Positions 19,486 through 40,000 of a stretch of 40,000 nucleotides of DNA are shown one piece after another; position 1 is the stretch's first letter; every line of letters starts with the position of its first letter. The notes below the pieces were generated by a model. It was not told where the DNA came from, ran no database searches, and was given only the letters and a program-made list of their open reading frames with translations. Made by a program: the position numbers and the translations under genes. The DNA comes from Nostoc sp. 'Peltigera membranacea cyanobiont' N6 (lineage in GTDB: Bacteria > Cyanobacteriota > Cyanobacteriia > Cyanobacteriales > Nostocaceae), in contig NZ_CP026681.1 of the NCBI RefSeq assembly GCF_002949735.1, positions 5,660,771 to 5,700,770 of the forward strand, read 5' to 3'.

Positions 19486-22400
19486 ATGATAACACTTGGT
19501 TCGTTGGTACGTTCCCGAAACAACAGCTTGGGCATAGGGAAGGTAATCGATATATCTGATACCCAGGCAAATGTTGAGTATTTTTGCTCAGTTGGGCAAC
19601 GGATAGAAAAAAGCTTACCCTTAAGTTCGCTATCTCAGTTGAAACTAGAGCGCCAAACTCGATGCTATATTTACCCGGAAAGCCAAGAAGCATGGCTGAT
19701 TGGCAGAATTTACGAGTGGGATGAGGAACTTTATCAGTATCGCATTGACTTACCTGATAAAAAGACGATCGCAGTTAGCGAAGAACAAGTATACGTGCGT
19801 TGCAATTTACCTCAAGCAGACCCCATCGAGACTCTAGCAATGAAGGGGCAAGAAACGCCCTATTTTCACGATAGACGCTTTGCTTTTGTTAAATGCTTAA
19901 TTTTACAACGCGCTGTCAGTCGGGGAATGACGGGATTAATTTCCGCCAATATTAAGCTTTATCCACATCAAGTTGAAGTTGTCCGTCGTGTACTCGAAGA
20001 TCCGATTCAACGATATTTATTAGCGGATGAAGTTGGACTGGGAAAAACCATCGAAGCTGGTGCTATTCTTCGTCAATATTTATTAGATGAACCTTCTGGA
20101 CGTGCGGTAGTGCTAGTTCCGCAATATTTACTGGAACAATGGCAGCAGGAATTAGAAAATAAGTTTTACATCTCCCACTTTCTCAAACGGGTAGCAGTGC
20201 TGGCGGTTGAGGATATCCACAAAATCAACCCAAAAGCGAATATTGGCTTGCTAATTTTAGATGAAGCACACCACATTGCAGCAATGGCGACTTCTAAGGA
20301 TACAACTGTGCTACAGCGTTTTGAGACTTGCAAAAATATTGCCCATAAAAGCGATCGCCTGCTTCTACTCTCGGCTACCCCGGTTCTCAACCACGAGCAG
20401 GATTTTCTCGCCATGCTGCATCTGCTCGATCCGACAACCTATAAACTTGATGACTTAGCAGGTTTTCGTGAAAGGGTAGTAAAACGCCAAGATATTGGTC
20501 GAATTCTCCTGTCATTTAAAGAAGGTGCAAACCCTTTCGTCTTGAAAACTAATCTCAAAAATCTCCGTAACCTGTTTGCTCAAGATAACTATTTACTGGA
20601 ATTGGCTGACAATCTAGAAAATAGTTTACAAGCAAAGGCTGGCGATACAGTTGAAATTGTCAGGGCAATTCGTATCCATATTAGCGATACCTACAGACTT
20701 CACAGAAGGATGCTTCGCAATCGTCGTGCTTCTGTAGAAGATGTAATTTTTGACCGTAATATTACACTGAGAACTGAGTATGATTTAGATGAGCGATCGC
20801 CTGACATCCACGAACTAATTGAAGAGTGGCGTGATGTAGCTCCTGATGACAAACAATATCACCACATTTTTTTATTGTTTTTCCGTGCTTCTGGTACTTG
20901 GCTGGGTATTTTAAAACAGGTAATTCAAGCACGTTTAAGTAGTGAGACAGCGCTGCGGGAGGGTTTCCCTCCGCAGGCGACTGCGTTCCCCGAAGGGGTT
21001 CTCGAAGAGTACACGAAGGGTATATCCACTGCGGAATTAATTCAGGAGTTTGGCGCTGATAGTGTTCGCATCCTGACTGAAACTCCTAAATTTGCTGGGG
21101 AAGCAGAGATTTTGCAAAGCCTACTGCAAATTATAGAACAACCTTCAGAGGATGGCGATCGCCTTGAATTACTCAAGACAGTTATCCTCTATCAACTCTG
21201 CGAACCTTTAAAATTACAATCCTTGAAATCCAACCTCCCTAAATTGCTTGCAGAGGTTCAAAAACGGCTAAAAAGACCGATGCCGGGAGATAGTCTGCCC
21301 AAAATTGTTATATTTACCAGTTTTGTGCAAACTTGCGCTGAAATTGTCCGTTATTTGAGCGATCGTTTTGGTGAGGGGACTATCGTCAGTCATCAAGTTG
21401 GACAAACTCCCTCTCAAGTAGAGGAGAACTTAAATCGGTTTAAAAAAGACCCCAAATGCTTTATTTTAGTTTGCGACTCCTCCGGCGAAGAAGGTCGTAA
21501 CTTACAATTTACCAACTACATGATATGTTTTGACTTGCCTTGGTCGCCAAATCGCCTAGAACAAAGAATTGGTAGGATAGATCGGATTGGTCGTCTATTG
21601 AAAGTTGAGTTTACAGTATTTGCTGGCGTAGACTTACCCGATAGTCTCCATGATGCATGGTATCGCTTATTAAAAGAAGGGTTTAATATCTTTAGACAAT
21701 CTATTGCTAGTCTCCAATTTTATGTAGATGAAAAATTACCTGTATTAGCAGAAATATTGTTTAAATCGGGTGCAAATGGACTATTAGAAAGTATAGAAGT
21801 AATTCAAAAAGAAATTGAGCAGGAACAAGTCAAAATTAGCGAACAGAACGCCCTAGATGAAATTGATGCTCTGGATGAGAATGCTACCCAATATTTTCAA
21901 GCTTTAGACGATTATGATGCCCGTCATCAGGAAATCCAGCAAGTAACTGAAGATTGGATTTGTGGTGCGTTGGGATTTGAGTCAATTACTAATCCTAATT
22001 TATCGGCACTAAAGCGTTATAAACCTACCGGAAATACATTAATTCCAGCAAATGATTTAAGCAGCAATTTTGCACGGGTTTTAGAAGAATTTGGGACTTT
22101 TAACCGTAGGGTAGCAAATCAACAGCTTGGTGCAAAACTCTACCGCATTGGTGAAAAATTTGTAGACGCACTATCATCTTATATTCATTGGGACGACCGG
22201 GGTCAAGCCTTTGCTATGTGGCGAGTTGCAGAAACTTGGGATTCTGGGGAAGGTGAAGAGTGGTATGGTTTCCGATTGAATTACGTTATTGAAACAAATT
22301 TAACGAATTACAAAAACACCACAAAAGATAAAACTTTGCAAAGACGCGTAGATGGGTTATTCCCTCCAATTGTAGAAAGTGTATTTATTGATGCACGATA

Positions 22401-22869
22401 TGAACCAATGTGTGCGGTTGAAGATGAAACACTATTAAATATCTTGCAACGTCCTTATAATGGCAAGGGCGGTAAATATCGAGATTACAACTTAGCCAAA
22501 AGTCGTTTATCTATTCTTGATAATTTTATTGAGCCTAGCAGTTGGCAAGAATTTTGCCATCAGACGCGTGACACATCTTTAGAATTACTCAGTCAGCGTC
22601 CTGAATTTATTTCATTATGTGAAAATAGCGCCATCCGTGCTGGACAAAAATTAGGTAAGAGACTAGACCAATTGCGCTTGCGTCTCAACCGACTTACTAA
22701 CCAAGAGCGTATTTCTAATAACGTACTGGAGCAAGAACTCAATAACGAAATGGCATTAAACCAAGTAATTATCGAAGGAATTCGTCATCCTACCATTCGT
22801 CTTGATTCTGTTGGTTTTATTATCGTTTCTGGGCGACCTCCAGCTAAATCTGAGGAGGATGATTTATGA
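19486..22869 (+). CDS. dpdE: SNF2/RapA-family helicase, DpdE-like by position
   Basis: Motif I LLADEVGLGKTIEAG, motif II LILDEAHHI, motif III LLLSATP, motif V GEEGRNLQF, motif VI RLEQRIGRIDRIG. Confidence 0.8.
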   Translation: MITLGSLVRSRNNSLGIGKVIDISDTQANVEYFCSVGQRIEKSLPLSSLSQLKLERQTRCYIYPESQEAWLIGRIYEWDEELYQYRIDLPDKKTIAVSEEQVYVRCNLPQADPIETLAMKGQETPYFHDRRFAFVKCLILQRAVSRGMTGLISANIKLYPHQVEVVRRVLEDPIQRYLLADEVGLGKTIEAGAILRQYLLDEPSGRAVVLVPQYLLEQWQQELENKFYISHFLKRVAVLAVEDIHKINPKANIGLLILDEAHHIAAMATSKDTTVLQRFETCKNIAHKSDRLLLLSATPVLNHEQDFLAMLHLLDPTTYKLDDLAGFRERVVKRQDIGRILLSFKEGANPFVLKTNLKNLRNLFAQDNYLLELADNLENSLQAKAGDTVEIVRAIRIHISDTYRLHRRMLRNRRASVEDVIFDRNITLRTEYDLDERSPDIHELIEEWRDVAPDDKQYHHIFLLFFRASGTWLGILKQVIQARLSSETALREGFPPQATAFPEGVLEEYTKGISTAELIQEFGADSVRILTETPKFAGEAEILQSLLQIIEQPSEDGDRLELLKTVILYQLCEPLKLQSLKSNLPKLLAEVQKRLKRPMPGDSLPKIVIFTSFVQTCAEIVRYLSDRFGEGTIVSHQVGQTPSQVEENLNRFKKDPKCFILVCDSSGEEGRNLQFTNYMICFDLPWSPNRLEQRIGRIDRIGRLLKVEFTVFAGVDLPDSLHDAWYRLLKEGFNIFRQSIASLQFYVDEKLPVLAEILFKSGANGLLESIEVIQKEIEQEQVKISEQNALDEIDALDENATQYFQALDDYDARHQEIQQVTEDWICGALGFESITNPNLSALKRYKPTGNTLIPANDLSSNFARVLEEFGTFNRRVANQQLGAKLYRIGEKFVDALSSYIHWDDRGQAFAMWRVAETWDSGEGEEWYGFRLNYVIETNLTNYKNTTKDKTLQRRVDGLFPPIVESVFIDARYEPMCAVEDETLLNILQRPYNGKGGKYRDYNLAKSRLSILDNFIEPSSWQEFCHQTRDTSLELLSQRPEFISLCENSAIRAGQKLGKRLDQLRLRLNRLTNQERISNNVLEQELNNEMALNQVIIEGIRHPTIRLDSVGFIIVSGRPPAKSEEDDL
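20941..21018. repeat. GC-rich short dispersed-repeat-like element embedded in-frame in the SNF2 helicase ORF
   Basis: gagacagcgctgcgggagggtttccctccgcaggcgactgcgttccccgaaggggttctcgaagagtacacgaag has an imperfect hairpin, ctgcgggaggg-ttt-ccctccgcag (20953-20976). It encodes SETALREGFPPQATAFPEGVLEEYTK. Its composition is unlike the rest of the gene. Confidence 0.45.
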
Positions 22870-25415: not shown

Positions 25416-26320
25416 GTGTACTCAAAGAACCTCTCGCTACACCCAGTAGAGTTAGAGGCATTTTTAGATACTTATTACAAAAAAAAGGACAAAAGGAGAA
25501 AAGAGAAGTTTTAGAAAAAATTCTTTCTCCTGATGAACTTGTGAAAGACGCGCCTTCTGGTCGCCCTATGTTCCGTAAAACAATCAATCAAATAAAAAAT
25601 AGAATCGTCAATGGAGTTCACAATATAGGTCTTTTGATTGAAGAGGAAGATGAAATAGCGATAAATCCAAGTCTTACCGAGGATTCTATAAATCCTCAAA
25701 TTGGTGACCAATTATTACCTAATACACTAGCTACCCTATTTTTTGCCTCTGGTAATACAGATGAGGAAGACTTTGGTCTTGTTTGTGCTTGGTACTTGGC
25801 ACAAAATATTTATGATGCTCCTGGAAATTGGGAAGCGATTCAAAATCAGGTCAGTGAACAACAAGTTGGTGAGTTACTAAGAATGACGAATAGCACTCTT
25901 TACGGTCAAATGGATGACTGGATGTGCTACATGGGTTTAGCTTGGGGCCATGCTTTGGGAGGAAAAAGAGTAACTGTTCCTGACCCTACGCTTTATATAA
26001 AACGAAATTTGAAGAATTTATTCAATGATCAGGTTGGTGCAAAACTTCTCATTCGAGAATTTATTGATAGATTAGCAAAAAAATGCCCTCTATTTGAAAC
26101 AGGTAAGTTTCGAGAAATAATTGAAATAAATATTGGTGGCCGTCAACTTAATTATTTATCTACTAGCACTGCGTTTGCTTTGTTTCGCTTACGAGATGAA
26201 GGTTATATCCAGCTTAAAAGAGAATCTGATGCTGACCTAATGATTCTACCAAAAGCGAATAACCAAGTCGATGATGATGGGCGAATTTCTCATATTACTT
26301 GGCAAGGAGAGAACTCATGA
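25412..26320 (+). CDS. hypothetical protein in the DpdG position
   Basis: ATGA start/stop overlaps at both ends tie it to the neighbouring genes. No motif recognised. Confidence 0.5.
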   Translation: MSVLKEPLATPSRVRGIFRYLLQKKGQKEKREVLEKILSPDELVKDAPSGRPMFRKTINQIKNRIVNGVHNIGLLIEEEDEIAINPSLTEDSINPQIGDQLLPNTLATLFFASGNTDEEDFGLVCAWYLAQNIYDAPGNWEAIQNQVSEQQVGELLRMTNSTLYGQMDDWMCYMGLAWGHALGGKRVTVPDPTLYIKRNLKNLFNDQVGAKLLIREFIDRLAKKCPLFETGKFREIIEINIGGRQLNYLSTSTAFALFRLRDEGYIQLKRESDADLMILPKANNQVDDDGRISHITWQGENS

Positions 26321-29300
26321 CTTTTGAAAAGTTTGTTTGCTGGAATTTGGAAAGAGTTCGCCGGGTTATGGATGTGGAAGCAACCCAACCCCCAAATCAT
26401 CTGTTTTTGGCGACTCACCATCCCATCGCCATGTATCGCCAAGAACTTATAAAGGCATCATCGCAGATTGAATACGATGAGCAGAAATTCCTCAAGGATT
26501 TTCTCGCAGAAAAAGATTTTGCTTTCGTGCCAGTTTTAGGCGGTTCTGGTACAGGTAAATCGCACCTAATACGTTGGTTGGCGGCTAATATAAAATCGAC
26601 GGAGAAACGCAAGGTATTATTGATTCCTAAAATCGGTACAAATCTGAAAGATATTGTCAGTCTTATCCTCGAAGGTATGGAGGGAGAAAGATTTGATGAA
26701 TACCGGGAAAGAGTAAAACGAGCAACTAATACCTTAACTGAAACTCAGGCGCGGGTACAACTTCTCAATCAACTGGCAGCAGCAGTAGGTGATGATGGGA
26801 AACGTGATAGAACGCAACTAACTGATGAGCATAATTACCTCATTGATGAGCTTGATTCTCTTCTATATGACCCATTTTTTCGGGAACATTATTGGCTTCG
26901 AGATAATGGTATTATTCATCGCTTAGTCATCCATATTTTGGGACGTAGAGATACGGTAGAGATTGTCGAAGAAAGGCGAGAATTTTCTATTGATGACTTG
27001 CCTAATAACCTTTTATATTTGGAAAAAGCTGGAGAAAGGTCTCGAAGTTTTTATACTGAGCTTTGGAGTAGCGATGAAATCAAGAAAATAACCGTAGACT
27101 GGTTGAACCAGCACCTAAATGAAGCCATTACCCAAGTGTTGAATTTGGGTCGGGAAGACCTGCGAAGATTAATGTGCGAAGTTCGGGAGATATTGGCAGA
27201 ACAAAATGTCGAATTAGTTCTGTTAATTGAAGACTTTGCGAAGTTACAAGGTATAGACCTAGAAGTATTAGAAGCAGTTTTGGCACGACCTCAACAATTA
27301 GGAAGTAAACCAATGTGTGCCATCCGCACGGCCTTGGCTTGTACTACAGGTTATTTTGAGAGTTTAATTGATACAGTAAAACAGCGTCTTACCTTCAGTG
27401 TTAATCTTGATGTTGGCACAGTTGGGGATCAATCTTTAATTACCCAAGATGATATTCAAGACTTTGTTGCTAGATATCTGAATACAGTTCGTTTAGAAGA
27501 TAAAGTTATTCTTGATTGGGCAACTTCTAACAATCACGAAGATAATTTTCAAAATGAACCTCTTGTAAGTGCTTGTAGCGATTGCGAACACCGCGAAGCT
27601 TGTCACGCTGGTTTTGAAAATGTGAATGGAATAGGTTTATATCCTTTTACACCCAAAGCTTTAGAGCAAATGCAGCATAGAGTTAACACTGGTAATTTTA
27701 ATCCGCGAATTTTGATTAAAGATGTGTTGAAGTACACTCTTGAAAATGGATTAGATAATATTAAAAAAGGGCTTTTTCCTTCTGTAAGCCTGCGAGAGCA
27801 TTTCGGTAAAATGCGGCTGAGTGCGATGTTACAGGCAGACATAAAAGCTAAAGATCCCCAAAACTTTGACCGTCGTGAAATACTAATAGATTTATGGACT
27901 GACAGCAATGAGCTTTGTGATTTACCCATACAAATTCACACAGCTTTAAATCTACCTCCGCTTGGAGTCAAAATTAAGCAGACTGAAATTAAGCGTGTTA
28001 TACCACAATCTCAAATTAGTCATGTACTACCACGAGTCACAGAAGCTGTAAAAAGCTATCAAACGACACGTGAAGAAACAGAAGATGTTCAGAAAGAAAT
28101 TCTTCCAAATAAACTAGCAGAACAAATAAAGCTTTTAGATAATTGGAACAATCAAGAAATTTTACATCAAGACTTAGGAAAACCACTACGCGAATTTATT
28201 TATCCTGCAATTATTGAAAGAATTAATTGGGATTCAGAGATTTTGCTTCAAGGAAGTTTTGCCAGATCCTCCAAGTCACGGGAGGATGTTGATAAAGGTA
28301 ATAAAATTTTTAAACAAAGAAATATAGTCTTTTATAGTCCAAGGGTTACAAGAGAAACAATTGCTGGAGTGAAGTTATCACTTCCGCTTAATCCTGATGA
28401 TGTGGACGAGTTTCGTACAACTGCGATCGCCTTTCAAGGTATCCTACTATATAGCCATTATAAAAACTGGAAGTTTGAAAATGGCGATCGCTATTTCCGT
28501 ACCTACACTCGACAATTAGAAAAATGGAGCCAGTACGTCTTAGAGCAAATTCGCCTTTACCCTCGTGAGTTTGGAGAAGCTTGGAACCCAGTACCAGCAG
28601 CAGTAGAATTACTGGCGATAACCTCCACGATGGCGGGACATCCTACAAATTCCTTGGAAGACGTGATTAATGCTTTGTTTTTAGACGTAGAAAATAATAA
28701 CGATGAAAATCGTGCTTTAAGTTGGAAACAATTATTTAAATCACTCAAAAAATATCGTAAAGACTTATTAGAAATTGTTCAAAGTCGAATTGCTTGTACC
28801 AAAGGAAGCTCAACCCAATTTCAAATTATTGATGCAATCCAAATTATCGAACCTCTAGAGAAGGTTAGAAAAACTTGGCAGCCTCAATGTGAAATTCCCG
28901 AAGATATCCGCGATAATAAACTTTTCCAGGATATCTACAAAGCACGCCAGCAAGTAGATGAACTCCTAGAGAAAGCTATCGAAGAAGAGTACGAACGACA
29001 GTTAGATATCTATCAGCGTCTAATATCCGAATTGGGAGAAAACATTAAGACAAAGGATGTTATTGACGCTCTCAAAGCTGCAATGGAAGCTGCACAAGAT
29101 GCAGCTGTATTTCGTGGACAAAAAGACTTTGATGGTATGACAAATGTGTTAAATAAATTCATGCCAAGAGCAATTAAAACTTATAGAGACACAATGAAGC
29201 GTGTACAAACGGAGAAAGAAAATCCAGAAAGTAACATCGGTAAATTACTTCAGTACTTGAGTGAAGATTATCAAAATGTCATTACTACTTCTTCAGAATT

Positions 29301-30170: not shown

Positions 30171-30193
30171 AATAAAGTAAGGGCAGGGCAAGG

Positions 30194-33100
30194 GTGACTA
30201 CCAACTGGGATAAAATAATTAGAGAATTTTTAGATAAGTTGGAACGCCAGGAAGTTCAACTTTTGACGTGGGGAATTGTTGATGGTGGATTTTCTGAAGA
30301 TGAAATTGAAGAACTTGCGGAAAATTTTCTGAATACTTGCGAGATTGATGAAGATGTTTGGGATTTTATAGACCAAATCCTCGATCGCAAATTGTTGTTT
30401 GAGTTCAACCTCAGAGGCGATCGCCTTTTCCGCACCCGAATGGCGGAAGCGGTGAGATTATTTGCCCGTCTTCGCCAACTGTTCCCGAATAATAATTGGC
30501 AAACATCTCCTACCTTAGTTGCTGATTATCGCCTACAAATCCGTCCGAGAATTTATCCCAAAAGGTATATTACGCCAGAAGCAGTAATTCAGCAGTTGGA
30601 AGCAGACAAACTGCTAACTCCCATACAGCAAAAAGCCGTTACAGCGATACTGCGATCGCCATTGCGCGGTGAGGTTCAACTTGCAGATTTCCAGCTACGC
30701 GCTACAAGCCGGATGCTGCGGGATTTAAACAGTACAAAAAGTCGTGGGATGATTGTCTGTGCTGGGACAGGAACGGGGAAGACTTTATCTTTTTACCTAC
30801 CAGCATTAGCGCATATTGCCGCTTTCTTGAAAAAGGATGAGTATTGGAGTAAAGGACTGGCAATTTATCCCCGTAACGAACTTCTCAAAGACCAATTTTC
30901 TGAAACCTATCAAGAAGCACGTCGTCTCGATGCTGTCCTCAAAGCAGAAGGTAAGCGTAAAATTCTCATTGGTGCATTTTTTGGCTTAACTCCCAGAAGC
31001 GCAATTTTGGATCGGGTGCAGGATAAATGGAAAGCTGAAAGTAGTGGGTTTACTTGTCCTTACCTGCGGTGTCCCAGATGTGAAGGTGCGCTATCTTGGC
31101 GACGGGCTGATGTGGAAGCTGGTAGAGAAAAACTTTCTTGTCTCAACCCATCCTGTAGTGCTGTTATCCAAGAAGATGAAGTAATTTTAACACGCGATCG
31201 CATGGCGAAAACTCCTCCAGACCTAGTTTTTACCAGCACAGAAATGCTAAATCGATCTATGGGAGACTCCCGTTACGGTCATGTATTTGGCATCGCGGCG
31301 GCGAAAAAGCCTCAGATAGTTTTGTTGGATGAAGTGCATACTTATACAGGTATCCACGGCGCACAAGTTGCTTACCTGCTGCGGCGTTGGCAGAAAATCA
31401 TTCACAAGAAAGTCCAATTTACTGGACTTTCGGCAACTCTAGAAAGTGCAGCAGAATTTTTCAGTCAACTTACAGGTTTAAACCCTGGTTCAGTGGAAGA
31501 AATTTCTCCTGGTGAAGACCAAATTGCTGAAGGAATGGAGTATCAATTGGTTCTCAGGGGCGACCCAGTATCAGGAACAAGTCTTTTATCTACCAGCATC
31601 CAAACGGCGATGCTGCTGCGGCGTGTACTCGACCCATCTGAAGACCCCCCTAGCAAAGGTTTCTATGGTTCCCGTGTTTTCGCCTTCACTGATGACTTAG
31701 ATGTTACCAATCGCTTATTCCATAACCTTTTGGATGCTGAAGGTCGAGACAGTTGGGGTCGTCCCTTGCGAGGAAGACAGCCATTAGCAGCTTTGCGATC
31801 GCATGGTGCAACTAATGGTAGAGAAAGGCTGATTGCCGCACAATCCTGGCTATTGTGTGAAGAAATCGGTCACGGTTTGCAACTTCCTTTGAATATTGGG
31901 CGCACTAGTTCCCAAGATACCGGAGTTACGCCAAATGCAGATGTGATTGTGGCTACTGCATCTCTGGAAGTGGGATTTAACGACCCAGAAGTTGGAGGTG
32001 TCATCCAGCACAAAGCACCGCGAGATATGGCATCTTTCCTGCAACGCAAAGGACGGGCGGGACGACGCAGAACTATGCGACCTTGGACGGTGGTAGTGCT
32101 TTCTGATTACGGACGGGACAGAATCGCCTATCAAGGCTACGATATGCTGTTTAACCCAGTTTTAGAAAAGCGATCGCTTCCCATCGCCAACCGCTATGTT
32201 ATTCGCATTCAAGCGGTTTTCGCCTTTATGGATTGGGTTAGACGGCAATTAGCGGCAACTATAGGAAGTGTCTGGAGAGACTTTGCTACTACTGATTTAT
32301 ACTTAATTAACCGTCAGCGACTAGAAATAAAACTGATCAAAAACATCCTGGAAACAGAAGCAGGACAACGCAACTTAGAAACATATCTGCAATCAGCACT
32401 ACACCTTACCAAAGATGAAGTCGAAGCAATTCTTTGGGAACCACCGAGATCATTGATGATGGCGGTGCTTCCGACTTTGCTACGGCGTTTAGAGTCTGGT
32501 TGGAAACGCCTTCCCATTCAGCAAGATGAATCAGACAAAGACTATCAAACCCGTGACCCGTTACCTGATTTTGTTCCCCCGAATTTATTTAGTGACCTGC
32601 TGTTGCCAGAAGTAACGATTACTACACCAGCACAGACGCGCAACAGTGAGCCGGATATTAACCCCATGCCCATTATCCAAGCCCTGAAAACCTTTACTCC
32701 AGGCAGGGCGACGCGCCGTTTCGGGGTGCAGCATATCTATGCAACTCACTGGATTGCACCGCCAGATTTACAACAAAGAGAACAAGAATTGCCTGTAGAA
32801 GACTATTGTGCCGAGTTTGAAGAAGCAGGGTATTTTCAATTATGGCAAGATGGGCAAGTTGTAGATATTCGCTGTATTCGACCTTGGGCAATTAATCCTA
32901 CCCAAGTTCCGCCTAATATTTCAATTACCTCTAACGCCCAATTGGAATGGCGCAGTCAAATTATACCACCCGACTTGGGAATAAAACTCGAACTGCCTCA
33001 AGGTTCCCCGTGGTGCAAAATTATCACAGAAGTTTGTTGTTTTACTCACACTCAACAATCGCCCGTGGAAGTGCGGCGGTTTGCGATCGCCTCTCATGCT

Positions 33101-34717
33101 AACATCCGCTTCGATAATGGCCAGGAACTCGATACGACAATTCGCTTCACCCAGAGACAGGATCGTAGTCCTGCGGCTGTAGGATTTGCCCAATCTGTTG
33201 ACGGTTTAGTATTTCGCTTTTGTATTCCGCCCAATTTCAGCATCAGTCCCAACGATTCCAATCAAGAGAAAATTCGGGCGTTTCGCACGGCATATTTCCG
33301 ATATCGGGTATTGACAGATACCAGATTGTGTGAGTTAACAAATGTCTTTCAACGAGAGTGGCTTTATCAAATATATATATCGATGCTGACCGCCCGTGCC
33401 TTGACAGCCCAAATCTCTCTACGTGAAGCTTTTGAGACGCTTTTGGGTGAAAATATGGGTCAAGAAATGGCAAGGGTTCTGGACAATATCTTTCAAACCT
33501 TGAATGTCGAAGAAACCCTACTGGAAGAAGGGGAATCTGCACCGGAACAAATTCAGGGACGGCAGAGGGTACATGATAGGTTGCTGGCACTTGCCAACGC
33601 AGATATCATCCAAACTATATTAAATGATCTTGCACCGATTCTCTGGTCAGAACCTGATGAAGAGTGGCACTCTTGGGCAGCATTACGTTTTAAAGCGACC
33701 TTGGGAGGGGCGCTGCTGGATGCTTGCGGGCAATTGTGTCCCCACTTTGATTTGGGCGACCTGATTTTAGATATCGATCCTGGCCCGCGTCCACCAGATG
33801 CACCTGCTATTTCAGAGGGAGTAGAGGAAATTTGGATAACTGAGTCTACCATTGGTGGCGGTGGGGTGATTGAGGAAATCTTGCGGCGCTATGCTGCTGA
33901 TCCGGCGAATTTTTTCCGATTGGCGGGGAGTGCGTTGTCACCTGCGGATTTTGAGATTGTGGACTCGGAACTGACGCGGTTACTGGAGTTAACCCAAACC
34001 AGTGCAGATGTTGCCGATGCAATGGCAGATGTGCGGTTAGCCGAAGGACATGGTGAATTAAAACAAGCAAGCGATCGCCTCCGTAAAGTCCTGTCCTCTG
34101 AGGGTATTTTGGTAACGCATCCGGTGATGACTGCAATAAACGCACGGGTTTTGCGTCCTGGAAGTACGCCGGAAACCGATAAACTACTGCTGGATTTGAT
34201 TCGTTTGTGGCATCAAGAAGAAGCGCGTTTAGGTATTGAAATTGATGCGCGGGTGTTTGCTTATGTCGCCAGCAACGATGACCAGTTGGATCGGGCATTG
34301 TTGCATCTTGGTTTAGTGCAGCCTAATCCCTATTGGCGGTTTCAAGTGATTTATGGGCTGTTGTGGGCGAGGGGAAATATTATTCGTTCTCGCGCCTTAT
34401 CTTCCTATAATCCTTTTGCTGTGGTTGCCGATGCTGATAGAGAAATTTTACTGGATGTTTTGCAAGTCGGCGATCGCACAGTTTGGCTGAATGAACCCAA
34501 CTGGCGAGAACAGGTGGAGGAAGCATTTAAGCAAGGTGCATCGGTTTCGCTGATAGCGCCTCCTGATGCGAGAGGAGATTTAAAGTCAGCGATTTTGAGT
34601 TTAGCAGTCGAACCAATGGAACTTGGGTTTTTGCAGGTTTACCCATTGATGGAGGGGGTGCAGAGGTATCCGCGAGGGTTTGGGGTGAGGCTACGAGTCA
34701 GGGAGCTAGTGCAGTAA
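30194..34717 (+). CDS. dpdJ: very large DEAD/DEAH-box helicase with inserted zinc ribbon and DUF1998-like C-terminal region, DpdJ-like by position
   Basis: Motif I VCAGTGTGKTLSFYLPAL, zinc ribbon CPYLRCPRC...CLNPSC, motif II VLLDEVHTY, GLSATL, and ASLEVGFNDPEVGGVIQHKAPRDMASFLQRKGRAGRR. The C-terminal region TLGGALLDACGQLCPHFDLGDL...ESTIGGGGVIEEI resembles the DUF1998 core of MrfA/DrmB-type proteins. GTG start. Confidence 0.75.
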   Translation: MTTNWDKIIREFLDKLERQEVQLLTWGIVDGGFSEDEIEELAENFLNTCEIDEDVWDFIDQILDRKLLFEFNLRGDRLFRTRMAEAVRLFARLRQLFPNNNWQTSPTLVADYRLQIRPRIYPKRYITPEAVIQQLEADKLLTPIQQKAVTAILRSPLRGEVQLADFQLRATSRMLRDLNSTKSRGMIVCAGTGTGKTLSFYLPALAHIAAFLKKDEYWSKGLAIYPRNELLKDQFSETYQEARRLDAVLKAEGKRKILIGAFFGLTPRSAILDRVQDKWKAESSGFTCPYLRCPRCEGALSWRRADVEAGREKLSCLNPSCSAVIQEDEVILTRDRMAKTPPDLVFTSTEMLNRSMGDSRYGHVFGIAAAKKPQIVLLDEVHTYTGIHGAQVAYLLRRWQKIIHKKVQFTGLSATLESAAEFFSQLTGLNPGSVEEISPGEDQIAEGMEYQLVLRGDPVSGTSLLSTSIQTAMLLRRVLDPSEDPPSKGFYGSRVFAFTDDLDVTNRLFHNLLDAEGRDSWGRPLRGRQPLAALRSHGATNGRERLIAAQSWLLCEEIGHGLQLPLNIGRTSSQDTGVTPNADVIVATASLEVGFNDPEVGGVIQHKAPRDMASFLQRKGRAGRRRTMRPWTVVVLSDYGRDRIAYQGYDMLFNPVLEKRSLPIANRYVIRIQAVFAFMDWVRRQLAATIGSVWRDFATTDLYLINRQRLEIKLIKNILETEAGQRNLETYLQSALHLTKDEVEAILWEPPRSLMMAVLPTLLRRLESGWKRLPIQQDESDKDYQTRDPLPDFVPPNLFSDLLLPEVTITTPAQTRNSEPDINPMPIIQALKTFTPGRATRRFGVQHIYATHWIAPPDLQQREQELPVEDYCAEFEEAGYFQLWQDGQVVDIRCIRPWAINPTQVPPNISITSNAQLEWRSQIIPPDLGIKLELPQGSPWCKIITEVCCFTHTQQSPVEVRRFAIASHANIRFDNGQELDTTIRFTQRQDRSPAAVGFAQSVDGLVFRFCIPPNFSISPNDSNQEKIRAFRTAYFRYRVLTDTRLCELTNVFQREWLYQIYISMLTARALTAQISLREAFETLLGENMGQEMARVLDNIFQTLNVEETLLEEGESAPEQIQGRQRVHDRLLALANADIIQTILNDLAPILWSEPDEEWHSWAALRFKATLGGALLDACGQLCPHFDLGDLILDIDPGPRPPDAPAISEGVEEIWITESTIGGGGVIEEILRRYAADPANFFRLAGSALSPADFEIVDSELTRLLELTQTSADVADAMADVRLAEGHGELKQASDRLRKVLSSEGILVTHPVMTAINARVLRPGSTPETDKLLLDLIRLWHQEEARLGIEIDARVFAYVASNDDQLDRALLHLGLVQPNPYWRFQVIYGLLWARGNIIRSRALSSYNPFAVVADADREILLDVLQVGDRTVWLNEPNWREQVEEAFKQGASVSLIAPPDARGDLKSAILSLAVEPMELGFLQVYPLMEGVQRYPRGFGVRLRVRELVQ

Positions 34718-34751
34718 AGTTAACATTTTTTAAACAAAAATTTAAAAATAT

Positions 34752-34778
34752 CTTGTTTTGGGGTATGTTTAAAACAAG
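34752..34778. promoter_or_regulatory. inverted repeat cttgtttt-N11-aaaacaag within an AT-rich TTTAAA(A)CA repeat region upstream of the MerR-like gene
   Basis: 8-bp perfect arms. At least four TTTAAA(A)CA copies lie between 34728 and 34810. The element could be the dpdJ-like terminator or a MerR-type operator. Confidence 0.35.
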
Positions 34779-34844
34779 TGTTTAAAACTTAGACTAAAAT
34801 TTAAACAAAACATCGCTGTATTTCGATGGAGTATAAAACTTTTT

Positions 34845-35318
34845 ATGGCTAGTGGATTTACTAGACAAGAAACCATCGCTCTGACTGGCATAAGCTCTGG
34901 CAGACTAAGCTACTTAGACAGAACAGAGTTGGTAGTGCCAGAAAAGTTTGGTAATCCTCAGCACCCTAAAGTCGTTTATAAGTGGCAGCAAATTCTAGAA
35001 ATAAAAACTATTGAAAGTTTAAGACAGAAGCTTTCATTACAAGAAATTAGAAAAGTTTTATATTTTTTAAAATTCAGAGATTATGAATATTCTTTTTTTA
35101 AGCATCGTCTTGTTTTTGTTAATTCACAACTTTATTTAATTGAAGATATGCAAGACTTCGGTTTGATGATTTTAGAAACATCTGGAAAAAATCAGGGGCA
35201 AGTTGTAATTCATGAAATTGGAGAAATAGGAGATGTGATTACAGAATTAGCAATAGAAGCAGAGAAACATCATGTTTTAGATTTTGATAAACGGACAGGA
35301 ATAGTTTTGAAGGGGTAA
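34845..35318 (+). CDS. MerR-like HTH protein
   Basis: The N-terminus FTRQETIALTGISSGRLSYLDRTELVVPEK fits the MerR HTH pattern (xTIGEVAxLTGVSxxTLRYYExxGLLxP). The C-terminal domain is unknown. Confidence 0.5.
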   Translation: MASGFTRQETIALTGISSGRLSYLDRTELVVPEKFGNPQHPKVVYKWQQILEIKTIESLRQKLSLQEIRKVLYFLKFRDYEYSFFKHRLVFVNSQLYLIEDMQDFGLMILETSGKNQGQVVIHEIGEIGDVITELAIEAEKHHVLDFDKRTGIVLKG

Positions 35319-35355
35319 GAGAAATACATATAAGAATCACAAGGAGAAACCAGTA

Positions 35356-38300
35356 ATGAGTTCTAATATAGCTGTAAATAAAATATACCAGCGAGTAATG
35401 GAGCATACTGGCTTCTATCATGATGGTGTGCCAACTACAGGAGTTACAGAAGCGGAAGATATTCGCAATAAAAATGAATATTTATACAAGTGCATTAAAT
35501 ATAGTGCTGTAATTAATCCTGAGCAAATTAACGCTACAGCAATCTATGAATTATCTGGTTCACCTTGTATTTATTTCACTCAATTAAATGAACCTAACCC
35601 TAGAGAGTTAGCTAAACTACATAAACTGTCTTGGAATCATGGTTCAGCCCCAATGTTGTGGGTAATTACACCTGAGCAGGTATTACTTTATAACTGTTAT
35701 TCTCAACCCACTAAACAAGATGAAAATGATCCAAACCGACATTTAATCGAGAGCTTTGAAACTACTGAAAGTGACTTGAACCGCATGAATCAATTCGCTA
35801 GTCGTCTGCAAATTGAATCAGGTGAGTTTTGGCAAAAGGTAGAAGCAAAGCAAATTGATCGTCAGCAAAGAGTAGATTCAGTTCTTGTAAAAGATTTGAA
35901 TCAGGCTGAAGAGAAATTAACAAAAGAAAAAAAATTAGAGCGTCAATTTGCTCACGCTCTTTTAATACGTTCTGTTTTTGTTGCTTATCTGCAAGATAGA
36001 GATATCTTAAATCAAGAATTTTTCTCTAGCCGCTTTGGAGTAGATTCATTTAATGAACTCCTAAATGATAAACTAGCTACTTATGAGTTATTTGAGTGGT
36101 TGCAAACGATTTTCAATGGGGATTTATTTCCTGTTTCAATAAAAGAAAGAGATGCTGTAGCCAAAAAACATCTTGAAGTTGCACAAAGTTTAATAGGTGG
36201 TGTAGAAGAAATAGGAACAGGTCAACAACGTCTATGGCGAGCTTATGATTTCAAAGTTATACCCATAGAATTGATTAGTTCAATTTATGAAAGTTTTATT
36301 TATGCTACTGATTCAAAATCAGCAAAAGAAAATAGTACACATTATACACCTATAAATTTAGTTGATTTGGTACTTTCTGAAGTATTTAAAGAACTTGATG
36401 GCGATGCTAAAGTTCTAGATTTAGCTTGTGGTTCAGGTGTATTTTTAGTTGAATCTCTGCGGAGATTAGTTGTTAAACGCTGGACTAATGGAGAATCACA
36501 AACTCGCCATCTAATTCGTGAAACTCTTTACAATCAAATTTATGGTGTAGATATTAATCCAGAAGCAGTTCAGATTGCGGCTTTTAGTCTTTACCTTACT
36601 GCTTTGGAATTAGATTATGAATTAGAGCAACATCGTCAATTAGCAGATGATTTAAAATTTCAAAAGCTAATAGGTAATAATTTATTTGCCAGTGACGCAT
36701 TTGATGAAACAGCAGAATTTAATCAAATAGAACAATTTACACATAAACAATTTAGTGCAATCGTTGGTAATCCACCTTGGACAAAACCTAAATCAAATAA
36801 ATCAGCAGAACAATATTGTGAGCGTAAGCGTCCTGATTCAGGTTATCCAGACGGATATCCTACAGCTTATGGTACACCTCCAGACCAAGCATTTTTATGG
36901 CGTATTGGCGACTTTGCTAATAATAAAACTTGCATTGGTTTAATTTTGCATGGCAAGCCTTTTTTCAGTAATGACACAGCAGCTACAAAAGCAAAAGAAT
37001 CTCTGTTGATGAGGTTTAAACCAAAAGTTATTGTTAATTTATCCAAACTGCGTAGAGAGCATATATTTCCTAATTCTGAAGCTCCAGCCATGATTTTAAT
37101 AGCAGAAGGTAAATATTCAGAACAGAGAGATTCTTTTTACTTTGTATGTCCAGAACGTTCTATAGATTTTCGACGACATGGCATTGTTGAAATTGGAGCA
37201 GAGCATATTAAAAAACTTCCGGTTTTTAGTACAGCATTAGAATCAAATATGCTAAAAATTGCTACTTGGGGTAGTGCTAGAGATATGTGCCTGATCCAAA
37301 AATTAGCAGATTTTACAAACATTAAACAAATTGCAGGAAATCCACCTAAGAATGGATTTAACTATGGAAATAAGCAAGAAATCCCACAAGAATTGATGAA
37401 TAAAAAATGTCTGCCTTCTAGCAAAATGCCCAGATATCAAATTGATGTAGATAAACTAGATTTCCCACCTGCAACAATGGAGTCTCCAAGGGATTCGCAA
37501 ATTTATAAAGCTCCATTGGTTATAATCTCACTAAGTGTTGATGGAAATGATGCCTTTTCTGCTTTTAGTCAAGAAGATGTTGTTTACACACAAAGATATT
37601 CAGGTATTTCTTTTGCAAAAGATCAAGTCAATTTAGCTCATTACTTGAATGGTGTTATCAATTCATCAATTATAAGTTACTTTTTATTCTTTACAGCTTC
37701 ATCATGGGGTATTGAGCGTAATGAAATAAAAACACAAGACTTAGGAATACTTCCTGTTCCTAAGCCAAATGAAGAAAACGAAAGATTTATTACTCAAATT
37801 ATTGAAATAGAAGGTAGATTGCGTGAATCTACCAATAAATCTGTTGAGAAAGATTTTAAAAAACAACTTGATGAAGCTGTATTTAATCTATACGGTTTAG
37901 ATGATAAAGAACGTATTTTAGTTGAAGACACTACGCAAATCACGATTGATTGGTATATGAATCGTGAGAAATCTACAACATTAAGAAGACCTAAAACTGC
38001 TGATTTAGAAGCGTATTCTATACAATTCATGAGTGTTATTAAACCATTTCTTCAGACACTTAACGAAAGAAGTATAGTTGCTGATATATTTAGTATTCCT
38101 AAAACAACATTAGAGGTGGTTAAGTTTAGCATAGTACCATACCTAGATCGTGAGCCAATTATACAAACTGTTCAGGCTGGGGATTTGGTGACTGTGCTGA
38201 AAAGCATTGCGGAACAACTACCGCCAAACTTGGCTGACCGCGTTTTCACCCGCCGTAATGCCAGAATTTATAACGGCGAATATTTATATATTATTAAACC

Positions 38301-38382
38301 TGCTCAACTGCGCTACTGGAGTCGTTCTGCTGGGTTAAATGATGCCGATACTGTTTTAGCTGAACATTTTAGGAATCGTTAA
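35356..38382 (+). CDS. gamma-class N6-adenine DNA methyltransferase, Eco57I/type IIG-like or PglX/DrmMI-like large architecture
   Basis: Motif X IYESFIY, HYTPINLV, motif I VLDLACGSGVFLVE, GVDINP, and motif IV IVGNPPW. About 330 aa precede the MTase core and about 500 aa follow it. Confidence 0.85.
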   Translation: MSSNIAVNKIYQRVMEHTGFYHDGVPTTGVTEAEDIRNKNEYLYKCIKYSAVINPEQINATAIYELSGSPCIYFTQLNEPNPRELAKLHKLSWNHGSAPMLWVITPEQVLLYNCYSQPTKQDENDPNRHLIESFETTESDLNRMNQFASRLQIESGEFWQKVEAKQIDRQQRVDSVLVKDLNQAEEKLTKEKKLERQFAHALLIRSVFVAYLQDRDILNQEFFSSRFGVDSFNELLNDKLATYELFEWLQTIFNGDLFPVSIKERDAVAKKHLEVAQSLIGGVEEIGTGQQRLWRAYDFKVIPIELISSIYESFIYATDSKSAKENSTHYTPINLVDLVLSEVFKELDGDAKVLDLACGSGVFLVESLRRLVVKRWTNGESQTRHLIRETLYNQIYGVDINPEAVQIAAFSLYLTALELDYELEQHRQLADDLKFQKLIGNNLFASDAFDETAEFNQIEQFTHKQFSAIVGNPPWTKPKSNKSAEQYCERKRPDSGYPDGYPTAYGTPPDQAFLWRIGDFANNKTCIGLILHGKPFFSNDTAATKAKESLLMRFKPKVIVNLSKLRREHIFPNSEAPAMILIAEGKYSEQRDSFYFVCPERSIDFRRHGIVEIGAEHIKKLPVFSTALESNMLKIATWGSARDMCLIQKLADFTNIKQIAGNPPKNGFNYGNKQEIPQELMNKKCLPSSKMPRYQIDVDKLDFPPATMESPRDSQIYKAPLVIISLSVDGNDAFSAFSQEDVVYTQRYSGISFAKDQVNLAHYLNGVINSSIISYFLFFTASSWGIERNEIKTQDLGILPVPKPNEENERFITQIIEIEGRLRESTNKSVEKDFKKQLDEAVFNLYGLDDKERILVEDTTQITIDWYMNREKSTTLRRPKTADLEAYSIQFMSVIKPFLQTLNERSIVADIFSIPKTTLEVVKFSIVPYLDREPIIQTVQAGDLVTVLKSIAEQLPPNLADRVFTRRNARIYNGEYLYIIKPAQLRYWSRSAGLNDADTVLAEHFRNR

Positions 38383-38385
38383 ATT

Positions 38386-39042
38386 ATGTTGCCATTGGAT
38401 GATTCAGGTGCTGTTGGACAACCATCAATTATTCAGCGATATGACATTATCGCAACAGTCCTTGATCTCATTCAAGCAGCTTGGATTAAAGTATGTCAAA
38501 AACCAGAGATTAATACCCAAAGTGACGAAGATACTATTGCTGGAGCTTTACATAATGAGATGTGGGCTGAAAAGGAACGCCGGGGTATATATGGGCCACC
38601 AAGAATTGAGAATGAAGCAGCAACAAGACGTTCTGACAAGAGCTTGAAGCCAGATGGTTTTATAGATTTTAAAATGGTTTATTCATGGAATATTGAAGAT
38701 TATTTTGGTCTAGAGTGCAAGAGAATAAGCAGTACAAAACCAGATAGAGATTTAGCAACAAAATATGTTTTAGAGGGTGTAAAAAGATTTGTTGTAGGAA
38801 CTTACAGTATAGGTCATGACTATGCAGCCATGCTAGGTTTTGTGATTGATGGTAAGGTTACTGAGTGTATTGATTTGATTTGCGATCGCCTTAATAAATA
38901 TAAAAATGAGATATCTTTGAAAGAAGATTGGGTTGACGAGCCAGGTTTTGGAACAACACAAAATATATATCGTACTCGTCATATTCAAGACGGTCAAAAT
39001 GATTTAATGACGATTCTCCATTTATTTCTCGTAGTTAATTAG
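38386..39042 (+). CDS. putative PD-(D/E)xK nuclease (candidate restriction endonuclease partner)
   Basis: KPDGFIDF is followed ~20 aa later by GLECKRIS, a PD...ExK arrangement. The gene starts 3 nt after the MTase stop. Confidence 0.5.
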   Translation: MLPLDDSGAVGQPSIIQRYDIIATVLDLIQAAWIKVCQKPEINTQSDEDTIAGALHNEMWAEKERRGIYGPPRIENEAATRRSDKSLKPDGFIDFKMVYSWNIEDYFGLECKRISSTKPDRDLATKYVLEGVKRFVVGTYSIGHDYAAMLGFVIDGKVTECIDLICDRLNKYKNEISLKEDWVDEPGFGTTQNIYRTRHIQDGQNDLMTILHLFLVVN

Positions 39043-39170
39043 ATTTTTATCCTTTGCATAGAATAATTTAAGCGTGGTATCATCACACTCCTCCACAACA
39101 CTATAATCCACAACGCTATAATCATTGATTAATTGAGGCACAATAGAACCAAAGGCACTGTGAATACACA

Positions 39171-39440
39171 ATGACTACTCAATTGATGGTTCAACCCTCA
39201 TCCTTAATGTCTTCTGGTATCAGGATGAGCGAATTCGGTGATATTTATCTTTTTAAATTTACCGATGAGCTACAGTCTCGCTTTGAAGAACTGTTGCAGA
39301 AGAAAAAAGCTGATGCGCTCACTCCTGAAGAAGAAGCTGAATATGTAGGCATTTCCGAACTTGAGCGAATATTTACCTTGATTAACGCTCAACTAGCAGC
39401 CAAAAGTAAATGGTGTCCGAACAAACTCGAAGACTTGTAA
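39171..39440 (+). CDS. hypothetical small protein preceding the HNH endonuclease
   Basis: ORF overlapping the HNH gene start by 31 nt. No motif recognised. Confidence 0.4.
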   Translation: MTTQLMVQPSSLMSSGIRMSEFGDIYLFKFTDELQSRFEELLQKKKADALTPEEEAEYVGISELERIFTLINAQLAAKSKWCPNKLEDL

Positions 39441-39856
39441 GAAAACGATCTGAATATCTCTGCGAATACTGTCACTCTCCAGAATACTTGAGTCCAGACC
39501 GTTTTACCATTGACCATATCATGCCGCAGTCTTTGGGTGGCTCTGATGAATTGGATAATTTGGCATTAGCTTGTCATCGCTGTAATGAGCGTCACTATAA
39601 TTTTACAGTAGGTACTGATCCCAACACTCAAAAACAAGTCCCTCTATTTCATCCCCGTCAGCAACAATGGTCTGAGCATTTTATTTGGACAAAAGACGGG
39701 ACAAAAATTGTCGGTACAACTTCTACAGGGAGAGCTACTAGCGATCGTTTTGACTTCAATGATGAACGTCGGGATGAGCCTTCGATTCAAGTTGCTCGTC
39801 GTTTTTGGGTAGAAGCGGGTTGGCATCCGCCCCAGTTAGATCCACGTCAAGAATAA
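39410..39856 (+). CDS. HNH endonuclease
   Basis: CEYCHSP...DHIMPQSLGGSDELDNLALACHRCNERH, a CxxC...DH...N...CxxCN HNH/zinc signature. Confidence 0.85.
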   Translation: MVSEQTRRLVRKRSEYLCEYCHSPEYLSPDRFTIDHIMPQSLGGSDELDNLALACHRCNERHYNFTVGTDPNTQKQVPLFHPRQQQWSEHFIWTKDGTKIVGTTSTGRATSDRFDFNDERRDEPSIQVARRFWVEAGWHPPQLDPRQE

Positions 39857-39862
39857 GAAGAA

Positions 39863-40000
39863 ATGTCATCCCGCTATATTCACTCCCGCCTAAGTTCCCG
39901 CCAAATCCCTGACTTACTCCAAACAATCTTCGTCGCCGAACTTATCACCCCCAGCCAATGCGTGTGGCTTGTTTCTCCGTGGATATCTGACATCCCCGTT
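39863..40000 (+). CDS. 5' fragment of an ORF running off the window
   Basis: ATG at 39863, open to the window edge (MSSRYIHSRLSSRQIPDLLQTIFVAELITPSQCVWLVSPWISDIPV). The xxxVWLVSPWIS segment resembles the first strand of PLD-type or other nuclease domains in defence proteins. This is unverified. Confidence 0.3.
   Translation, partial: MSSRYIHSRLSSRQIPDLLQTIFVAELITPSQCVWLVSPWISDIPV

Follow-up and report, generated by a model that had tools for sequence, protein, structure and literature searches.

Results

A Dpd operon interrupted between dpdJ and dpdK

We analysed a 40,000-nucleotide stretch of DNA (hereafter the window) from Nostoc sp. 'Peltigera membranacea cyanobiont' N6, positions 5,660,771 to 5,700,770 of the forward strand of contig NZ_CP026681.1, in which the genes of a Dpd system, the 7-deazaguanine-based DNA modification and restriction system, lie next to a gene for a large N6-adenine DNA methyltransferase. 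From 15.6 kb to the window end the plus strand holds every sizeable open reading frame (ORF), in the order queD, a dpdC-like/dpdA fusion, a gene for a 275-residue protein, dpdE, dpdF, dpdG, dpdH, dpdI, dpdJ, a variable slot and dpdK, with overlapping or tight junctions at 22866/22869, 25412/25415, 26299/26320 and 29469/29472. Genes were called with NCBIfam equivalog models at their family cut-offs, and the PADLOC models were in agreement:

15647..16036, plus strand: QueD-like 6-carboxytetrahydropterin synthase (preQ0 precursor supply); NCBIfam TIGR03367, E=4.8e-21, under the curated cut-off
16023..18203, plus strand: fusion protein, DUF6884 (DpdC-like) at the N-terminus and DpdA DNA-guanine transglycosylase at the C-terminus
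18253..19080, plus strand: 275-residue protein without a family, kept with cyanobacterial dpd loci; weak TGT-like YDYIAxGG motif
19486..22869, plus strand: DpdE, SNF2-family helicase; NCBIfam NF041062, 1163 bits against a cut-off of 500, full length; PADLOC DpdE, 776 bits
22866..25415, plus strand: DpdF, RecQ-like DEAD/DEAH helicase; NCBIfam NF041063, 1001 bits against 550; PADLOC, 759 bits
25412..26320, plus strand: DpdG; NCBIfam NF041064, 122 bits against 80
26299..29472, plus strand: DpdH, P-loop ATPase-like; NCBIfam NF041065, 903 bits against 450; Pfam AAA_22
29469..30170, plus strand: DpdI-like; NCBIfam NF041066, 38.9 bits against a cut-off of 150, full-length alignment
30194..34717, plus strand: DpdJ, large DEAD/DEAH helicase; NCBIfam NF041067, 2035 bits against 800; PADLOC, 1714 bits
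39863..40000, plus strand: start of dpdK (PLD-like), 46 codons before truncation at the window edge; NCBIfam NF041068, E=1.4e-15 over profile positions 3-45 of 167

An earlier, sequence-only reading of this DNA had noted an SNF2 helicase, a large helicase and a PLD-like ORF; these are therefore DpdE, DpdJ (or DpdF) and DpdK. DpdE (19486-22869) indeed carries the Pfam domains SNF2-rel_dom and Helicase_C. The DpdI-like gene was assigned by weak similarity and by its position between dpdH and dpdJ, which is common to all relatives. DpdG, DpdH and DpdI had been missed by that reading, as had a 157-residue MerR-like gene, an 89-residue ORF and an HNH gene described below.

The ORF that starts at 39863 reads MSSRYIHSRLSSRQIPDLLQTIFVAELITPSQCVWLVSPWISDIPV and contains the segment VWLVSPWIS, in which a resemblance to PLD-type domains had been suspected. 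The suspicion proved right, the protein being DpdK rather than the DISARM nuclease DrmC: besides the match to the NCBIfam model, the fragment hits the PADLOC DpdK model with E=9e-14, and its orthologue in the related locus L003 (loci other than the window are given here by L numbers), 97.8% identical over 46 residues and 171 residues long, contains a PLDc_2 domain and reaches 223 bits, the cut-off being 100. What lies 3' of position 40000 was inferred from L003, which is 97.9% identical to the window, and from other relatives. In these, dpdK is always directly followed by dpdD, which itself lies outside the window (573 bits for the DpdD orthologue against a cut-off of 300), and often thereafter by an opposite-strand gene of the DndB/DGQHR type. 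PGAP has given Dpd names to the corresponding genes of plasmid p057_I of Nostoc sp. C057 (90.6% nucleotide identity) and of N. flagelliforme pNFSY08, in the order dpdE, dpdF, dpdG, dpdH, (hypothetical), dpdJ ... dpdK, dpdD.

Conservation varies along the operon. DpdE, DpdF and DpdJ are 82-95% identical between the window and the close relatives compared (L001, L003, L019, L021), and DpdK and DpdD of close relatives are 95-98% identical to those of L034. DpdG, DpdH and DpdI are just 60-69% identical to the window in most close relatives, with L021 as an exception (DpdG 91%, DpdH 78%, DpdI 67%). To judge from these sequences, the middle of the operon, dpdG-H-I (25412-30170), has a mosaic make-up or evolves fast; it may act in specificity or as a sensor, or have arisen by recombination.

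The modification end

The 7-deazaguanine genes that had been proposed to the left of the helicases are present as QueD (15647-16036) and the DUF6884-DpdA fusion (16023-18203). Within the fusion, residues 309-712 match the DpdA model NF041059 with 460 bits against a cut-off of 200, and residues 100-181 match Pfam DUF6884 with 34 bits against a cut-off of 30. DUF6884 is the domain of DpdC (PMC12235509), and the PADLOC DpdC matches to the fusion protein are weak (E=2e-9).

We found no DpdB, the ParB/DndB-like ATPase on which preQ0 insertion depends in Salmonella Montevideo, beside DpdA in the window. The ParB-like protein encoded at 8366-9517 was considered for this role and set aside, as it is paired with ParA and its matches are confined to ParB models of the partition type. 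Among relatives, a DGQHR/DndB-family gene follows dpdD beyond the position of the window edge; it has no DpdB equivalog match. DpdB has been regarded as possibly dispensable in some clusters (PMC12839542). The 275-residue protein, which has a 57%-identical homologue near dpd genes in L031, contains a YDYIALGG stretch that resembles the YDYIAIGG of TGT and DpdA proteins (E=0.014 to 0.04; against DpdA, NCBIfam E=0.038 and BLASTP E=0.014 over 29 residues), while a sequence search of the PDB with this protein returned nothing. It may be a divergent TGT-like accessory protein or a stand-in for the missing adjacent DpdB.

The dpdJ-dpdK slot holds interchangeable cargo

Gene context establishes that the interval between dpdJ and dpdK is variable. 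We surveyed this slot in 33 fetched DpdJ loci plus L034, L040 and L042. In 25 loci of the Nostocales type, the window included, it is empty in two (L026, 42 bp; L009, 114 bp) and occupied in 23, where it contains 0.9-8.3 kb of low-GC DNA (27-41% G+C). In all seven more distant lineages, three Paenibacillaceae, two Planctomycetota, Limnothrix and a metagenome-assembled genome of the Pseudanabaenales, dpdJ and dpdK lie 2-105 bp apart. The occupied slots contained the following cargo:

window, L003, L025, L034: cassette of a MerR-like gene, a methylase gene and a gene for a 218-residue protein
L001, L005, L011, L016, L018, L021: NsnA/NsnB/NsnC-like genes (DUF262/GmrSD_N, AAA_15/DUF3696 and a 285-residue protein), opposite strand
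L015, L028: DRT UG19 reverse transcriptase
L014: AbiU/AIPR
L008: STAND NTPase and a 311-residue protein
L022: DUF262 and RiboL-PSP HEPN, opposite strand
L040, L042: DUF4365 proteins
L013: 892-residue protein without a family, DUF2887 and 188-residue proteins (L010: DUF2887 and 188-residue proteins only)
L006, L007, L019, L020: small ORFs only

Relatives whose dpdJ, dpdK and dpdD are 90-98% identical thus hold unrelated defence cargo in the slot. The NsnABC-like genes of six loci and the DUF262/HEPN pair of L022 lie on the opposite strand, which implies that co-transcription with dpd is not required. For the 892-residue and 311-residue proteins and for the 144-residue and 114-residue proteins described below, no Pfam, NCBIfam or PADLOC family was found; their slot position makes all four candidate new defence genes. 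Slot proteins without a family are encoded at L013 15905-18583, L008 8311-9246 and L007 16594-17362.

A methylase cassette and an HNH module fill the slot of the window

Between the stop of dpdJ (34717) and the start of dpdK (39863), the window contains four genes and one small ORF. The first three genes form a 4.3-kb cassette of 33% G+C, compared to 42-47% in the dpd genes, and the remainder is a two-gene module next to dpdK:

34718..34844, no strand: A/T-rich left border of the cassette, with repeated and inverted TTTAAAC(A)AAA motifs (repeats D10, I10, I21)
34845..35318, plus strand: 157-residue MerR-like HTH protein, first gene of the cassette; Pfam MerR_1, 22.3 bits against 21.6
35356..38382, plus strand: 1008-residue gamma-class N6-adenine DNA methyltransferase, type IIG/PglX-like; Pfam Eco57I, N6_Mtase, MmeI_Mtase
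38386..39042, plus strand: 218-residue partner protein, candidate PD-(D/E)xK nuclease by an invariant motif
39171..39440, plus strand: 89-residue ORF, leading gene of a mobile pair; overlaps the 5' end of the HNH gene
39410..39856, plus strand: 148-residue HNH endonuclease directly 5' of dpdK; Pfam HNH, 54.8 bits

The 1008-residue methyltransferase and the 218-residue ORF predicted previously are both real. Over its full length the methylase matches the PADLOC model REase_MTase_IIG with 241 bits; the Pfam TaqI_C match is weak. Motif I (VLDLACGSG) precedes motif IV (NPPW), and both are invariant in 32 homologues of 56-89% identity. The AlphaFold2 (AF2) model has a pLDDT of 78 and an N-terminal alpha/beta domain, and Foldseek matches it to CamA, M.BseCI, BrxX/PglX, BpuSI, DrdV and MmeI (E 1e-16 to 1e-10), the alignments with CamA and M.BseCI spanning 615-650 columns at E about 1e-16. 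The protein shares the layout of type IIG/IIL enzymes and of BREX PglX/BrxX (BpuSI 3S1S, MmeI 5HR4, DrdV 7LO5, BrxX 9EWZ/8C45), namely an N-terminal alpha/beta domain, a helical connector, a gamma-class N6-adenine methyltransferase and a target-recognition domain. Unlike in type IIG enzymes, however, the N-terminal domain lacks a conserved D...ExK triad: within residues 1-140 no such triad is invariant in the 32 homologues, the sole invariant charged or polar residues being K48, E65 and H89.

A motif of this kind is instead found in a separate, strictly co-conserved protein, the 218-residue product of the next gene, and a MerR-like gene precedes the pair; both features set the cassette apart from type IIG systems. 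The 218-residue protein has 166 homologues, all of which are called 'hypothetical' wherever the sources give a name. Across 37 sequences with identities as low as 49%, E77, D94, K96 and E110-C-K112 do not vary, a residue pattern that corresponds to a PD-(D/E)xK-type signature, and the gene always lies 3' of the methylase gene, with a 3-bp spacing or an overlap. The protein has no match to a Pfam or PADLOC family, and a sequence search of the PDB was empty. Foldseek with its AF2 model (pLDDT 82.8) gave nothing significant, the best relevant match being the type II enzyme R.SwaI with E=0.14.

From these features we infer that the 218-residue protein is the probable nuclease partner of a methylase with a degenerate nuclease-like N-terminal domain, and that the cassette works as an autonomous restriction-modification (R-M) unit based on N6-methyladenine (m6A). 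Alternatively, the cassette might not be a classical R-M system at all: the methylase could act alone, as an orphan or epigenetic enzyme or in a BREX-PglX-like exclusion, with a 218-residue partner that is not a nuclease, or the two could form a modification-dependent or abortive pair. The closest full-length structural matches of the methylase do include BrxX/PglX, which is partner-dependent and non-cleaving, and the 218-residue protein lacks a significant structural or family match. We nevertheless consider this alternative unlikely, given the strict maintenance of the pair, its tight spacing and the regulator gene upstream, the invariance of E77, D94 and E110-x-K112 in so divergent a set of sequences, and the fact that the best relevant fold match, weak as it is, is a type II restriction enzyme. 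The cyanobacterial subfamily of the methylase apparently has no characterised member, and the cassette represents a widespread and, it seems, uncharacterised cyanobacterial R-M-like family.

As to its regulation, the MerR-like gene always precedes the methylase gene (L003, L025, L034, L037, L039, L043, L044, L045, L046), and its product is the candidate controller of the cassette. The intergenic region at 34718-34844 is conserved in L003 and L025 and might serve the MerR-like gene as promoter or operator. A promoter scan of 34400-40000 performed no better than on shuffled sequence, and the scan of the same interval yielded no convincing plus-strand terminator between dpdJ, the cassette and dpdK.

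The cassette also exists away from dpd genes

We placed homologues of the methylase in their contigs and thereby found further copies of the cassette. It recurs as a unit in at least five places that lack an intact dpd gene nearby. In L039, L043, L044 and L046, its three genes occur together in unchanged order, and about 7 kb around them is free of dpd genes; the L039 copy (61% identity) lies between urease/cyanase and glycosyltransferase genes, that of L043 is from Cylindrospermum FACHB-282 and that of L044 from a metagenomic Nostocales contig. A fifth copy (L037, 73% identity) resides on the chromosome of Nostoc sp. MS1 (AP023441.1). At its left border, L037 7204-7363 retains about 160 bp of the 3' end of dpdJ, with similarity starting from window position 34558, whereas no intact dpdJ or dpdK flanks it and no other Dpd family was found in the rest of the +/-8 kb locus. 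The remnant suggests that the copy left a Dpd slot together with part of its flank and has since been maintained without Dpd. The slot-borne copies are those of the window, L003 (98%), L025 (88%) and L034 (89%).

Another copy, 63% identical, was observed at L045 11254-15429 (Phormidium sp. LEGE 05292), 1.2 kb from a gene for a 450-residue TGT+DUF6884 fusion; a 913-residue DEAD/Helicase_C/MZB (DUF1998) helicase is also encoded nearby, and the element carries PolB, DnaX and SSB genes. This locus may encode a deazaguanine system of another, compact type, and may be the second place where the cassette and TGT genes occur side by side.

Slot borders bear probable marks of exchange

Compared with loci that hold other cargo, nucleotide similarity to the window ends at 34665-34723, at the dpdJ stop, and returns either at about 39106, where the HNH module starts, or at 39851, just before dpdK. 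The HNH gene is found in 9 of the 23 occupied slots, counting the window, and is named HNH endonuclease by PGAP in p057_I; the 89-residue ORF and the 148-residue HNH protein are conserved in L001, L003, L005, L006, L008, L019, L028 and L040. In eight loci, the place next to dpdK is taken by a gene for a 144-residue protein, in five of them preceded by one for a 114-residue protein. The 89-residue/HNH pair also occurs far from dpd, on the unrelated Nostoc plasmid pCENA543b (L041 6056-6741), where it adjoins parAB and an AAA-ATPase/DUF4276 pair. We speculate that the HNH gene might drive the hotspot in a homing-type manner.

Several cargo borders contain partial duplicates of the flanking dpd genes, which resemble scars left by a series of recombinations or insertions. 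The dpdK 5' end is duplicated in five loci, at 75-84% identity, and the dpdJ 3' end in L014 and L028, at 83-90% identity, as well as in L037; the window itself has neither. Their positions are:

L001 18065-18153: duplicated dpdK 5' end
L005 18308-18438: duplicated dpdK 5' end
L013 18800-18940: duplicated dpdK 5' end
L018 14642-14767: duplicated dpdK 5' end
L040 19162-19246: duplicated dpdK 5' end
L014 14667-14791: duplicated dpdJ 3' end
L028 13070-13256: duplicated dpdJ 3' end

On account of these fragments, exchange probably proceeds by homologous recombination through the dpdJ and dpdK flanks. Our repeat search found neither direct nor inverted repeats on the two sides of the cassette of the sort that betrays a transposon or att site.

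A plasmid-like backbone

The left part of the window contains replication and partition genes:

6134-7102, minus strand: actin-like ALP/ParM-type protein
8366-9517, minus strand: ParB
9521-10369, minus strand: ParA
12307-13107: 266-residue Rep-like protein with a CDEAT(S/G) tandem peptide repeat
13133-14506: DnaB helicase

Because of this ParA/ParB/ALP/Rep-like/DnaB backbone, and because the closest annotated relatives of the window are Nostoc plasmids, we regard the element as plasmid-like. No tRNA genes were found in the window. A 271-residue ORF at 14469-15284 overlaps the end of dnaB and has many PSKN(S/N) peptide repeats; a segment of about 60 residues is present in two copies, WRTITRGGKDYPQAYYHW and WKTITLHGKDYPQAWYHY, and profile scans gave no family matches for this ORF.

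Discussion

In all probability, the window is part of a plasmid-like Nostoc replicon and holds the restriction half of a Dpd system, with two mobile modules in its dpdJ-dpdK slot, and the two marks, 7-deazaguanine and m6A, belong to two stacked systems. The identities of the genes, and the autonomy of the cassette in its gene context, are directly observed. Dpd would accordingly be the resident operon by this account, and the m6A cassette one of many interchangeable guests. The first module of the slot combines a putative MerR-like regulator with a type IIG/PglX-like methyltransferase, which has a target-recognition domain of its own, and with a small PD-(D/E)xK-motif protein, the latter probably supplying the nuclease that the degenerate N-terminal domain of the methylase lacks; the second, the 89-residue ORF and the HNH endonuclease, would be independent of the first. 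The slot itself would be a recombination hotspot, whose cargo is presumably exchanged by homologous recombination via the flanks.

Stacking of two systems was one of two explanations offered by the sequence-only reading, and it is now well supported: the methylase cassette also lives away from dpd and is one of at least eight slot cargos. The other explanation, a helicase machinery that reads both marks, finds no support in these sequences. A built-in dual-mark machine is argued against by the cargo being unrelated between close relatives and on either strand, by the slot sometimes being empty, and by the cassette living elsewhere alone.

A number of points nonetheless weigh against the picture of two stacked systems. 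The nuclease call for the 218-residue protein rests on its motif, as Foldseek returned no significant match, and the DpdI-like protein scores under the NF041066 cut-off. Neither DpdB nor DpdD is visible inside the window; in relatives dpdD and a DGQHR/DndB-family gene are placed past the position of its edge. The slot-borne copies of the cassette, being 88-98% identical, form one lineage and therefore stand for one insertion event, while the independent cassette beside the TGT-DUF6884 fusion of L045 leaves room for a non-random association of the cassette with deazaguanine systems.

This last observation bears on the possibility that cargo and operon are functionally coupled. The slot would then be a docking site for auxiliary or back-up effectors and the m6A cassette a second layer wired to Dpd; by analogy with what has been proposed for BREX accessory effectors, cargo might act when a phage evades or inhibits Dpd. 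What can be annotated of the cargo is indeed of the defence type and lies within the operon instead of next to it, 23 of the 25 Nostocales-type loci have an occupied slot, recruited auxiliary effectors are a general pattern in a BREX survey (PMC12839542), and the L045 homologue neighbours another TGT-based module. However, the cargo of one locus is unrelated to that of the next, both orientations are seen, and cargo is found elsewhere without Dpd; no shared adaptor domain was seen; and the slot is empty in two Nostocales loci and in seven of seven distant lineages, in operons that are otherwise intact. We therefore hold such coupling to be improbable. The same applies to its stronger version, in which the Nostocales dpdJ-dpdK junction is a dedicated docking site and cargo coupled to Dpd acts with it as one machine under deazaguanine and m6A marks; there, R-M-like cassettes, NsnABC-like genes, DRT reverse transcriptases, AbiU, STAND NTPases, HEPN and DUF4365 proteins would be exchanged via homology arms at the dpdJ 3' and dpdK 5' ends, possibly driven by the HNH endonuclease, and would serve as second layers or back-up effectors. 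This, too, seems quite unlikely to us.

The sequence-only reading had further likened the genes to DISARM. Class 1 DISARM (DrmD, DrmMI, DrmA, DrmB, DrmC) and the window do have in common an SNF2 helicase, a large DEAD/DEAH helicase, a PLD-like protein and a large N6-adenine methylase nearby, and DISARM shares with Dpd the broad logic of a helicase/nuclease complex that is restrained by a DNA mark. There is also distant family-level similarity, yet all scores are far under the family cut-offs and far under those of the Dpd and type IIG models for the same proteins: DpdE reaches 184 bits against a cut-off of 610 with the DrmD model NF038317, 117 against 950 with NF038318 and 153 with PADLOC; DpdJ reaches at most 56 bits with PADLOC DrmA, a core-motif match only, compared to 1714 with the DpdJ model; and the methylase reaches 35.7 bits with PADLOC DrmMI, confined to the catalytic motif region, compared to 241 for type IIG. 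The sequence-only reading had assigned a DUF1998-like tail to a helicase; helicases are present at 22866-25415 and 30194-34717, but the tail was not confirmed, as PF09369 (DUF1998/MZB) has no match at E<=10 in DpdE, F, G, H or J, and DrmB was accordingly not found. The PLD-like ORF at the edge, the candidate for DrmC, is a DpdK equivalog instead, DpdG, H and I have no DISARM counterpart, and the self-mark of the helicase set is 7-deazaguanine rather than m6A. Finally, 19 of 23 occupied related loci lack the methylase gene and have dpdE-K intact; the gene is unrelated cargo, not a constant DISARM-style member. With no protein at a DISARM threshold, these membership tests effectively refute a class 1 DISARM-like system or a DISARM/Dpd hybrid in which helicases, methylase and PLD protein act as one, and we give it almost no credence. 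The apparent hybrid is a standard Dpd system, and no new dual-mark defence logic is therefore needed.

In Salmonella enterica serovar Montevideo, DpdA together with DpdB puts preQ0 into DNA, DpdC converts preQ0 to ADG, and unmodified DNA is restricted by DpdD-K (PMC10164549). With that system (dpdA-K) the window has equivalog-level orthologues of DpdA, E, F, G, H and J in common, as well as a DpdI-like gene and the DpdK N-terminus in the same order, an adjacent QueD and the same division between modification and restriction genes; its relatives confirm DpdK and DpdD. It differs in the fusion of the DpdC-like DUF6884 domain to DpdA, the extra 275-residue gene, the absence of DpdB beside DpdA, with a DndB/DGQHR gene after dpdD in relatives, the location of dpdD after dpdK, the variable cargo slot between dpdJ and dpdK, and the plasmid-like backbone (ParA, ParB, ALP, DnaB). 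Dpd as such is a known system, and PGAP assigns its gene names automatically. The cyanobacterial architecture, with its DpdC-like/DpdA fusion, dpdD after dpdK and the DGQHR gene on the far side, and the dpdJ-dpdK hotspot amount to modest extensions; the fusion was seen at the sole modification end examined, that of the window.

Defence genes embedded in other defence operons have precedents, as prrC sits inside the EcoprrI hsd operon. Like such embedded genes and like the hotspots of BREX auxiliary effectors (PMC12839542), the slot offers a fixed position to interchangeable anti-phage modules. Unlike them, it is a hotspot inside the Dpd operon, between dpdJ and dpdK of Nostocales, and its borders carry duplicated dpd flank fragments. 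In the literature searched, we found no report of a dpdJ-dpdK hotspot or of this cyanobacterial Dpd architecture.

A 2025 survey that required both dpdA and dpdB recovered a single cyanobacterial island, without restriction genes (PMC12235509). In the loci described here, complete Dpd restriction operons are common on Nostocales replicons. Their dpdJ-dpdK hotspot can be mined for new anti-phage genes, among them those for the 892-, 311-, 144- and 114-residue proteins, and the slot provides a natural test of cooperation between a defence operon and the genes embedded in it.

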